Positions 3,629 to 61,896 of a stretch of 64,000 nt of DNA are shown here, piece after piece. Location: NCBI RefSeq assembly GCF_044324785.1, contig NZ_CP172127.1. One strand, 5' to 3'. A program made the position numbers and the translations under genes. Position 1 is the stretch's first letter, and each line of letters opens with the position of its first letter. The notes beneath the pieces were generated by a model, which saw only the letters and a list, made by a program, of their open reading frames with translations, searched no databases and was not told where the DNA came from. Source of the stretch: Escherichia coli (GTDB lineage: Bacteria; Pseudomonadota; Gammaproteobacteria; Enterobacterales; Enterobacteriaceae).

Positions 3629-3928
3629 ATGGCGCTTACAAAAGCTGAAATGTCAGAATATCTGTTTGATAAGCTTGGGCTTAGCAAGCGGGATGCCAAA
3701 GAACTGGTTGAACTGTTTTTCGAAGAGATCCGTCGCGCTCTGGAAAACGGCGAACAGGTGAAACTCTCTGGTTTTGGTAACTTCGATCTGCGTGATAAGA
3801 ATCAACGCCCGGGACGTAACCCGAAAACGGGCGAGGATATTCCCATTACAGCACGGCGCGTGGTGACCTTCAGACCCGGGCAGAAGTTAAAAAGCCGGGT
3901 CGAAAACGCTTCGCCCAAAGACGAGTAA
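3629..3928 (+). CDS. ihfA: integration host factor alpha subunit
   Basis: 99-aa [60 protein letters not shown]; HU/IHF fold signature. Confidence 0.95.
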
Positions 3929-3945
3929 TCTGATCTAACTAAAAA

Positions 3946-3966
3946 GGCCGCTCTGCGGCCTTTTTT
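3946..3966 (+). terminator. rho-independent terminator after ihfA (GGCCGC-tct-GCGGCC then TTTTTT)
   Basis: perfect 6-bp GC stem followed by a T6 run, seen in sequence. Confidence 0.75.
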
Positions 3967-4028
3967 CTTTTCACTGTCGAAGAGTCACCGTAAAATCAAC
4001 GCCATGACACTTCAGCAGAACGGATACC

Positions 4029-7160: not shown

Positions 7161-7874
7161 ATGAAGATTTTTTTGGAGAATCTTTATCATTCTGATTGCT
7201 ATTTCCTGCCGATAAGAGATAACCAGCAAGACCTTGTCGGCGTTGAGTTAATTACCCATTTCTCCAGTGAAGATGGTACGGTTCGTATCCCGACGAGTCG
7301 GGTTATAGCGCAACTTACCGAGGAGCAACATTGGCAATTATTTTCTGAGCAGTTGGAATTGCTAAAATCATGCCAACACTTTTTTATTCAACATAAACTC
7401 TTTGCCTGGCTTAATTTAACCCCACAAGTGGCTACTTTATTATTAGACAGGGATAATTACGCGGGCGAACTATTAAAATATCCGTTTATTGAACTGTTGA
7501 TTAATGAGAATTACCCGCATCTCGATGAAGGAAAAGATAATCGCGATCTTTTTTCCTTATCGCAAATGTATCCCCTTGTGTTAGGTAATTTGGGCGCAGG
7601 CAATAGCACAATGAAAGCGGTTTTTGATGGCCTTTTCACCCGCGTCATGCTGGATAAAAGTTTTATTCAGCAACAAATCACGCATCGCTCCTTCGAACCG
7701 TTTATTCGTGCGATCCAGGCGCAAATTTCCCCATGTTGCAATTGCATCATCGCGGGGGGCATTGATACGCCAGAAATAATGGCACAGATTATCCCCTTTG
7801 ATTTCCATGCTCTCCAGGGATGCCTGTGGCCTGCCGTTCCTGTAAATCAGATAACGACGTTGGTTCAGCGATAA
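7161..7874 (+). CDS. ydiV: degenerate EAL-domain protein, anti-FlhD4C2 factor
   Basis: 237-aa ORF matching YdiV; AT-rich codon usage; position between nlpC and selO. Confidence 0.88.
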   Translation: MKIFLENLYHSDCYFLPIRDNQQDLVGVELITHFSSEDGTVRIPTSRVIAQLTEEQHWQLFSEQLELLKSCQHFFIQHKLFAWLNLTPQVATLLLDRDNYAGELLKYPFIELLINENYPHLDEGKDNRDLFSLSQMYPLVLGNLGAGNSTMKAVFDGLFTRVMLDKSFIQQQITHRSFEPFIRAIQAQISPCCNCIIAGGIDTPEIMAQIIPFDFHALQGCLWPAVPVNQITTLVQR

Positions 7875-7897
7875 CCCTCCTGTTTGCTGGTGTTTAA

Positions 7898-28569: not shown

Positions 28570-28706
28570 CGTGTAATGGCTGCATGAAATAAACAATAAA
28601 ATATAAATAACATTATCAGCCTGCTGACGGCTTGAAGAGAGTCACAGTATCTTGTGCAACATTATTGGAAAGCGTGAGGGGCGAGGTAGCGAAGCGGAAA
28701 AATGTT

Positions 28707-28812
28707 AAAAAAAAGCCCATCGTGGGAGATGGGCAAAGACTACACACAGCAATTCGTTGTTTCACTCAGGGGATTTCCATGCTTATAAATCAATATGTTG
28801 ATTTATAACCGT
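28707..28812 (-). ncRNA. rprA: RprA small regulatory RNA (Hfq-dependent, activates rpoS translation)
   Basis: minus-strand sequence ACGGTTATAAATCAACATATTGATTTATAAGCATGGAAATCCCCTGAGTGAAACAACGAATTGCTGTGTGTAGTCTTTGCCCATCTCCCACGATGGGCTTTTTTT recognised as RprA, including the terminal hairpin plus U-run; lies between ydiL and ydiK. Confidence 0.85.
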
Positions 28813-34061: not shown

Positions 34062-34250
34062 ATGTCTACTCAACTTGATCCCACCCAGCTGGCCATTGAA
34101 TTTTTACGCCGTGACCAGAGCAATCTTTCACCTGCCCAATATCTCAAACGTCTGAAACAACTAGAACTTGAATTTGCTGACCTGCTTACTCTCTCTTCTG
34201 CTGAATTAAAAGAAGAAATCTACTTTGCCTGGCGTCTGGGCGTGCATTGA
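34062..34250 (+). CDS. ydiH: small protein of unknown function
   Basis: ORF track 33981..34250; internal ATG gives the 62-aa MSTQLDPTQLAIEFLRR protein. Confidence 0.7.
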   Translation: MSTQLDPTQLAIEFLRRDQSNLSPAQYLKRLKQLELEFADLLTLSSAELKEEIYFAWRLGVH

Positions 34251-34439
34251 TCCTGACTTAATGCCGCAAGTTCGCCATATCGACCTGGATTAATCTCCGT
34301 CCAGGTTCGATGGCCTTCTTAATACTGCTTATCTACCCGCCTGATATTGTTCAAAAATAATACTAATCGCAGTTTGTGTTAAAACGGCGGGTTAGCTTTA
34401 TGAGATTATTCTTATCGCCCCTTCAAGAGCTAAGCCACT

Positions 34440-34515
34440 GAGAGTGCCGGAGATAAGCGCCGGATGGGGTAGAAACCCTTAAGCCTGTGTCGCACAGACT
34501 TAAGGGTTTTCTTAT
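34440..34515 (+). ncRNA. rydB: candidate small RNA ending at an intrinsic terminator (possibly RydB, reported between ydiH and sufA)
   Basis: strong hairpin CCCTTAAG-loop-CTTAAGGG followed by TTTTC about 225 bp after ydiH and about 290 bp before sufA; 5' end not determinable from sequence; RydB identity is from memory of its map position, not sequence recall. Confidence 0.3.
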
Positions 34516-34738
34516 TTCTAAACGCTGCACTTTTTTACCTATCTCTTAAATAGTCATTTTCAATACAACTTTTTCTTTTTCATCACAGCCTTAATGCTCC
34601 TTAGATAATAATCATTATCTAACAATGAGATACCTAATTCTTAGCGTGCCTGTTAACCCACACATCAGGGTCTATGCTTATTAAAAGCAGGAAAAAAGCA
34701 TGTTTTACGGTAAAGCCCCTGCGTTTGCTGGGTTGAAC

Positions 34739-34753
34739 TGATAATCATTATCA
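34739..34753 (+). promoter_or_regulatory. Fur box in the sufA promoter (TGATAATCATTATCA)
   Basis: canonical GATAAT/ATTATC inverted repeat about 45 bp upstream of the sufA ATG; the suf operon is Fur-repressed. Confidence 0.7.
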
Positions 34754-34798
34754 CTAACATGCTGTTATACGCTGAAAGCGATGAAGTGAGGTAAATCG

Positions 34799-35167
34799 AT
34801 GGACATGCATTCAGGAACCTTTAATCCACAGGATTTCGCCTGGCAGGGCTTAACGCTGACACCCGCAGCCGCTGTCCACATACGCGAGCTGGTGGCAAAG
34901 CAGCCGGGTATGGTCGGCGTGCGCTTAGGCGTGAAGCAAACGGGATGCGCGGGCTTTGGCTATGTGCTCGACAGTGTTAGCGAGCCGGACAAAGACGATC
35001 TGCTGTTTGAACACGACGGCGCGAAGCTGTTTGTCCCGCTGCAAGCGATGCCGTTTATTGATGGCACGGAAGTCGATTTCGTTCGTGAAGGACTTAATCA
35101 GATATTCAAATTTCACAACCCTAAAGCCCAGAATGAATGTGGCTGTGGCGAAAGCTTTGGGGTATAG
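34799..35167 (+). CDS. sufA: Fe-S cluster A-type carrier
   Basis: 122-aa ORF with C-terminal CGCGESF motif. Confidence 0.95.
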
Positions 35168-44290: not shown

Positions 44291-44492
44291 TTGCTTCAGT
44301 TGCGGTCCAGTTAATCATTCTAAATAACAACTGCTGAAATTATACGAATTTCGATATGTGTTTTAATTTATAACGATAATATTATTTTTATTTTCTGCTA
44401 TGAATGTCACAAATAATTGTCGCTTAAGTTAAATTTATTTCAAATGATAATAAATATCAGTTCACTTATAATTTCTTGCTTTGTAATTTTAA

Positions 44493-52179: not shown

Positions 52180-52485
52180 TCAGGCGAGTTTTGCCTGATT
52201 GATTTGACTCAGTGGCTCATTGACATCGAAAACTTTGGCGACAACTTCCTCAACGCCGAGATTTTTCAGTCGGGCAGTATGTTTTTCCAGATAGGCTAGG
52301 GCGCTTTTTTCATCAGTGAAAAGGTAGATCCCACCGGCTTCGTGGTTCTTTTCACTTTCTGTCCATACCTTCCACAGAAAACCAGGTTCCTGATTAATCG
52401 ACTCAGCAAGCGGTTTAAGCTGCTCAGCCATTGCGTCGCCAAATGGGCCATTAAAAGCAAAATGAAGTTGTAACAAAGTTGCCAT
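52180..52485 (-). CDS. ydhR: putative monooxygenase/dimeric alpha-beta barrel protein
   Basis: 101-aa ORF. Confidence 0.82.
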
Positions 52486-52592
52486 AGCGATTCTCCTTCT
52501 GATAACGCATACGAAGACAGTGTAAATCTTTTAACGTATTGGATACAGAGAAGAAACAGAGGGAAAAACGAGAAGACCAGATTAAGAAAATC

Positions 52593-52669
52593 TGGTGCGT
52601 CCGAGTGGACTCGAACCACCGACCCCCACCATGTCAAGGTGGTGCTCTAACCAACTGAGCTACGGACGC
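52593..52669 (-). tRNA. valW: tRNA-Val (anticodon GAC), distal copy of a tandem pair
   Basis: minus-strand GCGTCCGTAGCTCAGTTGGTTAGAGCACCACCTTGACATGGTGGGGGTCGGTGGTTCGAGTCCACTCGGACGCACCA: cloverleaf, GAC anticodon, encoded CCA; valV/valW naming is by position and could be swapped. Confidence 0.9.
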
Positions 52670-61343: not shown

Positions 61344-61387
61344 TCCATTTCACTCCAGACCCTAACTTCAGCTCCTGCAAAATCGCA

Positions 61388-61403
61388 AGGTAAACGTTTG
61401 CCT
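61388..61403 (-). promoter_or_regulatory. PUR-box-like operator in the purR leader (AGGCAAACGTTTACCT on the minus strand)
   Basis: AAACGTTT-centred palindrome about 45-60 nt upstream of the purR ATG; purR is autoregulated through operators in its leader. Confidence 0.55.
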
Positions 61404-61641
61404 TTACACACCTTACGCACAACAAAAGTGTTGCGGTACGCCGGAAAAACGACACGGAGCGTCAGGAAGGGGTCAATGGCCAGTACGCAAATAGTGTAAG
61501 CGTGGAATTTTGGCCGATCTTGACGAAAAGGGGAAGTGGTAAAAACACTTATCATTATAAATGACGGGAGATTTTTTCATCACAGTGTGTAAAAATGCGT
61601 AATATCACTTTTTGTGTGGTAATAAAAAAGGAGAAAACTTG

Positions 61642-61731
61642 ATGAGCACCGACCTTAAATTTTCACTGGTAACAACGATTATCGTCCTCGGTTTGATCGT
61701 GGCCGTGGGTTTGACAGCCGCGCTGCACTGA
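61642..61731 (+). CDS. ynhF: 29-aa single-TM small membrane protein
   Basis: ATG AGC ACC GAC ... CTG CAC TGA gives MSTDLKFSLVTTIIVLGLIVAVGLTAALH; GGAG Shine-Dalgarno 8 nt upstream; not in the ORF track because it is under 60 aa. Confidence 0.7.
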   Translation: MSTDLKFSLVTTIIVLGLIVAVGLTAALH

Positions 61732-61896
61732 TTTCCTCTCGAGGGAGCGCGTTCTCCCTCGCATCTCCTTCCTGTTTGTTAGCAAAATGGCAAAAGTGTT
61801 TTCTCTTTTTGTTATTTTCATTTTTTTGTGATTGCTGTCATGCTTTCGCCACTTTAATGAATATCGCGTAATGACGCGAAGAGGTGGAGATAAGGC

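Follow-up and report, generated by a model that had tools for sequence, protein, structure and literature searches.

RNase P RNA, tmRNA, 6S RNA and 4.5S RNA lose their terminator during maturation, and Hfq binds the terminator hairpin and U-tail of small RNAs (sRNAs). In the literature the sufABCDSE genes are repressed by Fur, the suf promoter is under Fur, IscR, OxyR and IHF, and OxyR, whose site is far upstream of the sufA promoter, depends on IHF. Here we study the spacer between ydiH and sufA in a 64,000-nt stretch of Escherichia coli DNA (contig NZ_CP172127.1 of assembly GCF_044324785.1), called the window below, whose positions are used throughout. We hold with good confidence that, as the best explanation of the whole spacer, two known units lie side by side on the plus strand, the gene of the small RNA RydB (rydB) and the control region of sufABCDSE.

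Because ydiH ends at 34250 and the ATG of sufA is at 34799, the spacer is 34251..34798 and 548 bp long, which agrees with a sequence-only reading of this DNA that had outlined a non-coding region of this length. The gene order is ydiJ, menI, ydiH, the spacer and sufABCD, all on the plus strand. The spacer is 100% identical to that of E. coli strain N3 and 99% identical to that of K-12, and it was found in 5421 of 5426 complete E. coli genomes. K-12 coordinates were converted by taking the window position as 1799185 minus the K-12 coordinate, a relation that holds downstream of a 1-bp indel near 34337.

RydB, its mapped ends and its probable promoter

The RNA of the spacer is RydB itself, which is already known and also carries the names tpe7 and IS082. 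The Rfam rydB model RF00118 matches 34417..34477 on the plus strand with 81.6 bits against a gathering score of 50 (E = 9e-18), covering model positions 1-61 of 61. In K-12, rydB (b4430) is annotated in the interval from ydiH to sufA, and all three genes share one strand. The sequence-only reading had suggested RydB as a possible occupant of this interval, and the model match and the K-12 annotation bear that suggestion out. Apart from rydB, a permissive Rfam scan of the spacer returned chance-level matches alone (E >= 1), and ARAGORN found no tRNA in the spacer.

The 3' end is given by published Term-seq data (Adams et al. 2021, PMC7815308), which contain a single rydB 3' end, at K-12 position 1764708 or window 34477, in three of three growth conditions. 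The curated tables for the three conditions hold no other 3' end between K-12 1764400 and 1764999, and none in the downstream U-tract (~K-12 1764672-1764678) or at any coordinate of the form 17646xx (PMC7815308). The 3' ends of lpp, rprA and csrB fall inside T-runs in the same tables (PMC7815308), and therefore Term-seq does detect terminator-ended RNAs. For the 5' end, differential RNA sequencing (dRNA-seq) of Salmonella SL1344 gives the RydB start by a 51-nt promoter string ending ...TATGAGATTATTCTTATG, in which the last G is +1 (PMC3963941); this +1 is the G of GCCCC and is homologous to window 34417. The E. coli rydB start was also sought in start-site tables, and nothing was found in the Cappable-seq supplements. 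From the start at 34417 and the 3' end at 34477 it follows that mature RydB, 34417..34477 on the plus strand, is 61 nt long, exactly the extent of the Rfam model, and does not contain the hairpin that adjoins it; both ends come from published mapping, the 5' end by homology with Salmonella. The sequence-only reading had predicted a 60-80 nt RNA ending at about 34515, which would need a 5' end at 34435-34455. That prediction is not supported, as the mapped start is 34417, the Term-seq end is 34477 and the U-tract is free of ends.

Moreover, the K-12 rydB record (1764713..1764780, minus strand, 68 nt), which corresponds to window 34405..34472, is offset from the mapped ends, lying 12 nt too far at the 5' side and 5 nt short at the 3' end. 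In other E. coli genomes rydB is not annotated by the RefSeq pipeline.

Judged by its Term-seq signal, RydB is among the most abundant small-RNA 3' ends of E. coli, of the same order as tmRNA and CsrB. The score of its 3' end was 2.2 million in lysogeny broth (LB) at an optical density at 600 nm (OD600) of ~0.4, and 4.1 million in LB at an OD600 of ~2.0; the scores for comparison were 0.9-2.2 million for tmRNA, 1.2-3.9 million for CsrB, 0.4 million for 6S RNA and 0.08-0.18 million for lpp (PMC7815308). The RydB body is almost invariant save for one short variable loop (CTGAG in E. coli), and the common E. coli variants also lie in this loop. Compensatory changes are present in two of the four pairs of the closing stem, while the two inner helices are invariant and hence uninformative; for the interior, both RNAalifold and the single-sequence fold favour a structure different from the Rfam consensus.

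The rydB promoter (34366..34409, plus strand) was examined in an alignment of 30 orthologous regions upstream of the start, with invariance judged by eye. It comprises a conserved block CGCAGTTTGTGTTAAAA at 34366..34384, about -51 to -33 relative to the rydB start, and an extended -10 with TG at 34401-02 and the hexamer GATTAT at 34404..34409. The TG, one base before the hexamer, and hexamer positions 1, 2 and 6 (G, A and T; GAnnnT) are unvarying in all 30 sequences, and the middle bases of the hexamer differ between taxa. GATTAT ends 7 nt before 34417, and from this pattern we infer that TGaGATTAT (34401..34409) is the extended -10 which would start transcription at G34417. Two other candidate -10 hexamers, TATGAG and TAGCTT, were rejected, as they lack the invariant A2/T6 pattern or lie in a variable stretch. 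We also set aside a 13-codon open reading frame (ORF) from the ATG at 34400, which starts upstream of the mapped rydB start and whose 'ATG' is the TG of the extended -10, and a 35-codon minus-strand ORF (34423..34530), which is without support.

The hairpin at the 3' end of RydB

The mature 3' end, 8 nt past the closing helix of RydB, falls five bases into the 5' arm of a conserved hairpin at 34473..34509, which together with its U-rich tail TTTTCTTATTTCT occupies 34473..34519 on the plus strand. The sequence-only reading had described a strong hairpin with TTTTC at 34476..34509, and this was borne out: CCCTTAAG occupies 34476..34483 and CTTAAGGG 34499..34506, and TTTTC comes next (34507..34511). 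That reading understated the inverted repeat, which has 17-nt arms at 34473-34489 and 34493-34509 that are 94% complementary around a 3-nt loop, and GGG stands at the base of the stem, followed by TTTTCTTATTTCT. The hairpin folds with -22 kcal/mol (z-score -5.9), and none of 200 shuffled sequences was as stable. A simple terminator scan missed the hairpin, probably due to the single C/A mismatch inside the stem.

The hairpin is conserved in Escherichia, Salmonella and Citrobacter alike. In 29 taxa, 11 of its 15 pairs carry compensatory changes, and the paired cells make up 94.9%. When the Rfam structure and the hairpin were placed together on the 29-sequence alignment, 96.9% of cells pair, compared with 28-55% with slid partners, and none of 500 shuffles reached any of these measures. 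The U-run after the stem is kept in 24 of the 29 taxa, most taxa having 4-7 T straight after the stem.

The hairpin is presumably the intrinsic terminator of the primary rydB transcript, one that is absent from the mature RNA. The primary transcript would run from G34417 into the hairpin at 34473..34509 and stop in the U-rich tract, giving a precursor of ~95-105 nt. The terminator would then be cut off, by an endonuclease cut and subsequent 3' exonuclease trimming that would stall a few nt short of the closing helix; such removal would resemble the maturation of stable RNAs, e.g. RNase P RNA. In addition, the hairpin would shield the suf control region, which begins ~20 bp downstream, from read-through of the very active rydB promoter. 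A wider form of this proposal, which is possible and which we advance tentatively, is that RydB would be no terminator-ended regulator of the Hfq type but a very abundant, near-invariant 61-nt RNA that matures like a stable RNA, with a dedicated, co-evolving 3' hairpin that is transcribed and then removed, and that is kept in some Citrobacter without a U-run. If this is true, it would suggest that RydB binds a protein or serves a structural purpose, and that its maturation includes a processing step not yet described.

A different account of the same structure is that the hairpin is mainly a signal for processing or protection and not mainly a terminator, for example a site where RNase III cleavage ~12 bp from the loop creates the end at 34477. 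The mature 3' end does fall within the 5' arm at a distance of 12 bp from the loop, and five taxa (loci L013, L016, L017, L025 and L030) have a different, longer and fully complementary stem (19 bp perfect in L016) that still abuts RydB and has no good T-run. Therefore in these five taxa a processing or protective signal fits better than a classical terminator, and the hairpin may act as such a signal in addition to, or in place of, ending transcription. However, most taxa keep their T-run after the stem, which would be needless for a pure processing signal, and the E. coli stem, 17 bp with a mismatch, is short for RNase III. On this balance we regard a mainly processing function as rather unlikely, if worth keeping in view, and return to the terminator that is transcribed and later removed as the preferred account.

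The hairpin was also considered as the terminator of ydiH, and this was rejected. It starts 226 bp past the ydiH stop, and ydiH has its own hairpin at 34274..34314 (plus strand), 24-64 nt past the stop, the fold of 34251..34335 having -22.2 kcal/mol (z-score -3). The inner part of the ydiH hairpin, 34297..34313, was matched by a terminator-like scan; the Escherichia version lacks a good T-run, whereas other genera have a canonical hairpin and T-run at the same place after ydiH. The structure at 34274..34314 is probably a 3' structure or weak terminator of ydiH itself. The sequence-only reading was right that the mid-spacer hairpin is not simply the ydiH terminator.

The distribution of rydB was studied in 78 loci from Enterobacteriaceae, obtained by a scan with YdiH. 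RydB together with the hairpin is present in Escherichia, Salmonella, Citrobacter, one Leclercia genome and Pseudenterobacter, and Rfam found no RydB in 20 loci of Enterobacter, Lelliottia, Kluyvera, Kosakonia and others, of which only the Intestinirhabdus locus reaches sufA; that locus thus includes sufA and is without rydB. In Salmonella and Citrobacter, rydB stays beside ydiH or sufA even where genes have been inserted. Most Citrobacter have a 2-kb insertion between ydiH and rydB (e.g. L014 2757..4618), with rydB still ~300 bp upstream of sufA; judged by eye from the translations, the insertion holds a minus-strand ORF like a metallo-beta-lactamase fold and a divergent ORF like a LysR-type regulator. 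In Salmonella, the insertion separates rydB from sufA instead and holds a minus-strand transporter gene, STM1368, whose end is 12 nt away from the RydB terminator. In E. coli P276M (NZ_CP044293.1, L083 1500..1600), a shorter, unrelated stretch, GGCTGAGAAACCTCGCTTAGTCGGCCAGACTGGCGGTTTTATTT, stands in place of the hairpin and the 3' half of RydB, and sufA is annotated as frameshifted; rydB may be naturally disrupted in this strain, or the assembly may be at fault.

Control elements upstream of sufA

For the second unit, the sequences of 22 taxa were aligned over the 300 bp that precede sufA. The sufA core promoter (34733..34767, plus strand) consists of the -35 TTGAAC (34733-38), the Fur operator TGATAATCATTATCA (34739-53) and the -10 TAACAT (34755-60), with an inferred +1 near 34767, and the -35, TGATAATCATTATCA, the -10 and the IscR site are nearly invariant across genera. 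The proximal Fur box TGATAATCATTATCA at 34739..34753 is a 7-1-7 palindrome with 0 mismatches, and it scores 16/19 against the 19-bp Fur consensus, the sole such match in the 64 kb. This box is the known Fur operator of sufA. Fe-Fur bound to the palindrome, which fills the spacer between -35 and -10, would block RNA polymerase. Layered control of suf by Fur, IscR and OxyR, as the sequence-only reading had it, agrees with the literature, which adds IHF.

An IscR type-2 site on the plus strand at 34712..34737, conserved across genera, has 0 mismatches to the consensus AWARCCCYTSnGTTTGMnGKKKTKWA; this consensus was probably built partly from the sufA site itself. Further upstream, a block kept across genera, CCTAT-N7-AAATAG.CATT.TC.ATACA.CTTT at 34541..34575 (given without strand), is most likely the far-upstream OxyR site, and its match to the OxyR consensus is weak. 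In Lee et al. 2004 the OxyR footprint is reportedly -236..-197, or 34531..34570 if +1 is 34767, the IHF footprint reportedly -156..-126 and the IscR footprint reportedly -56..-35. Both these footprints and the presumed +1 near 34767 fit the places of the motifs in the spacer, and they also fit the numbering of the sufAB fragments in PMC12533949.

Another block, on the plus strand at 34653..34687, is nearly invariant and among the best-conserved stretches upstream of sufA in the 22 taxa, and it matches none of the OxyR, IHF, IscR or Fur sites considered. It reads CTGTTAACCC...CAGGGTCTATGCTTAxTAAA and offers TTAACC, 16 nt and TATGCT (34675..34680), with a start near 34685. In Salmonella dRNA-seq, a sufA start lies 117 nt upstream of the ATG, given by a string ending CAGGGTCTATGCTTAATA and by 4 reads only. 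This start falls right after the conserved block, the E. coli equivalent being ~34685. The stretch 34653..34687 may be a second, upstream suf promoter.

Two Fur-box-like repeats were noted in the sequence-only reading, and both are where it placed them; the proximal one is the Fur operator, and the distal one turned out to be restricted to Escherichia, polymorphic and aligned with the IHF site. The 'multiple Fur-type palindromes' of that reading go too far. The distal box GATAATAATCATTATC is found exactly at 34604..34619, ~150-160 bp upstream of the sufA +1, and merges into an IHF region, the whole spanning 34604..34641 (given without strand) with an IHF core-like TAACAATGAGATA at 34620..34632. 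It has 2 mismatches to the 7-1-7 palindrome, a level at or below which three sites were found in the window against 0.22 expected by chance, and the exact 12-mer ATAATCATTATC is common to the distal and proximal boxes. In the 22-taxon alignment, the distal palindrome is kept in Escherichia only. The aligned Citrobacter sequence ATAATCCATTATTAATCAATGCATTGA holds a perfect IHF core AATCAATGCATTG, whose E. coli counterpart TAACAATGAGATA is directly 3' of the box, and therefore the distal box corresponds to the AT-rich 5' arm of an IHF site. Judged from the alignment, it is best read as that arm and not as a second conserved Fur operator.

We consider it improbable that the distal box is a true Fur operator in its own right. 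Such an operator would give layered or cooperative control and might, for instance, compete with IHF and so prevent activation by OxyR under iron-rich conditions. The near-palindromic form of the distal box and the 12-mer it has in common with the proximal operator speak for such a role, as does its overlap with the IHF region that OxyR activation needs. However, only Escherichia keeps the distal box, in contrast to a proximal box that does not vary between genera, and even within E. coli the distal box varies at 34612: the window allele T (counted by an exact 66-nt sequence) is present in 2132 genomes, ~39%, and C, which adds a third mismatch to the 7-1-7 palindrome, in 3256 genomes, ~60%, K-12 included. 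The box scores 14/19 on the 19-bp consensus, which is equalled at seven other places in the window, its distance from the +1 is large for the role, and the suf literature examined puts Fur at the sufA promoter and mentions no second upstream site. Hence the AT-rich arm of the IHF site remains our reading of the distal box. A promoter-like ATCACA-N16-GATAAT (34582..34609), in which the -10 is half of the distal box, was also rejected; three such matches occur in 1 kb against 1.7 expected, an excess without significance, and it is not conserved outside Escherichia.

The third Fur-like palindrome of the window, TGATAATAAATATCA at 44445..44459, has one mismatch to 7-1-7 and lies in the spacer between fumD (ydhZ) and ydhY, ~250 bp upstream of the ydhY operon for iron-sulfur proteins. 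The best match in the window to the IscR type-2 consensus after the sufA site is at 7871..7896 (plus strand), with one mismatch. Other Rfam matches in the window are RprA at 28705..28812 (minus strand), STnc550 at 61344..61734 (plus strand) and STnc540 at 3870..4028 (plus strand). A match to HPnc0260, a Helicobacter antisense RNA, at 52469..52631 (plus strand) shares bases with a minus-strand tRNA gene (52596..52669) and probably reflects the tRNA sequence, not a real homologue.

Weighing the locus and comparison with known systems

Several points weigh against the account given here, in which a rydB gene with a removable terminator stands beside the suf control region. The longer stem without a good T-run in five taxa fits a classical terminator less well than a processing or protective signal, and no precursor ending at the hairpin is seen in the published mapping data examined; both the stop at the hairpin and the subsequent loss of the hairpin are presumed. 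The mature RydB fold is no stabler than shuffled sequences (z-score 0), and therefore the abundance of RydB is not explained by its structure alone. For the suf unit, the positions given for the OxyR and IHF footprints and for the sufA +1, reportedly those of Lee et al. 2004, are presumptive, and weak binding of Fur to the distal box may occur in strains with the T allele, as just two positions of the box depart from the 7-1-7 palindrome.

The Salmonella data on RydB are consistent with a precursor. Salmonella RydB is annotated at 105 nt, roughly what an RNA reaching from the start site to the end of the terminator would measure, which fits the precursor picture, and in a Salmonella Hfq pull-down RydB was 2.5-fold enriched (4 vs 10 reads), compared with 49-fold for RydC in the same table. 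This weak enrichment, together with a mature RNA without U-tail, fits removal of the terminator. It is very unlikely that the hairpin is instead the 3' end of the functional sRNA, a terminator-ended RydB of Hfq type with 60-80 or ~100 nt and the 61-nt species as its breakdown product, for although the hairpin and U-tract resemble a normal sRNA terminator and the 105-nt annotation and slight Hfq enrichment can be read in its favour, Term-seq has no end in the U-tract in three conditions, the end at 34477 is among the strongest in the dataset, the Rfam model has 61 nt and ends at 34477, and true Hfq-binding RNAs such as RydC are enriched far more strongly with Hfq.

Taken as a whole, the locus is an annotated sRNA beside a well-studied Fur-repressed promoter, and as such it is already known. 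The new points are modest: the offset K-12 annotation of rydB with its omission by RefSeq, the absence of the hairpin from mature RydB through its probable removal, and the reading of the distal box as part of the IHF site.

Like the stable RNAs (RNase P RNA, tmRNA, 6S and 4.5S RNA), RydB is very abundant, with a Term-seq signal of the same order, and its mature 3' end likewise lies upstream of a terminator-like hairpin and not in the U-tract. In contrast to them, its processing is putative, and no housekeeping role of RydB is known. That mature RydB lacks the conserved hairpin adjoining it is a possible clue to the biogenesis of an abundant RNA. RydB also resembles the Hfq-dependent sRNAs, for example RprA in the same window, in that it is short, independently transcribed, intergenic and placed beside a hairpin and U-tract; its overproduction is reported to lower rpoS expression, and otherwise assorted expression and mutant phenotypes are found in the literature. 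It differs from these sRNAs in that the mature RNA has neither terminator hairpin nor U-tail, and in its weak Hfq enrichment. On the suf side, the locus follows the known architecture, with the proximal palindrome in the spacer between -35 and -10 and the IscR, IHF and OxyR-type elements upstream in the order of the literature, whereas the layout described there does not include the distal Fur-like box; for motif searches the caution is that what looks like a good palindrome may be no more than the AT-rich half of a site for IHF.

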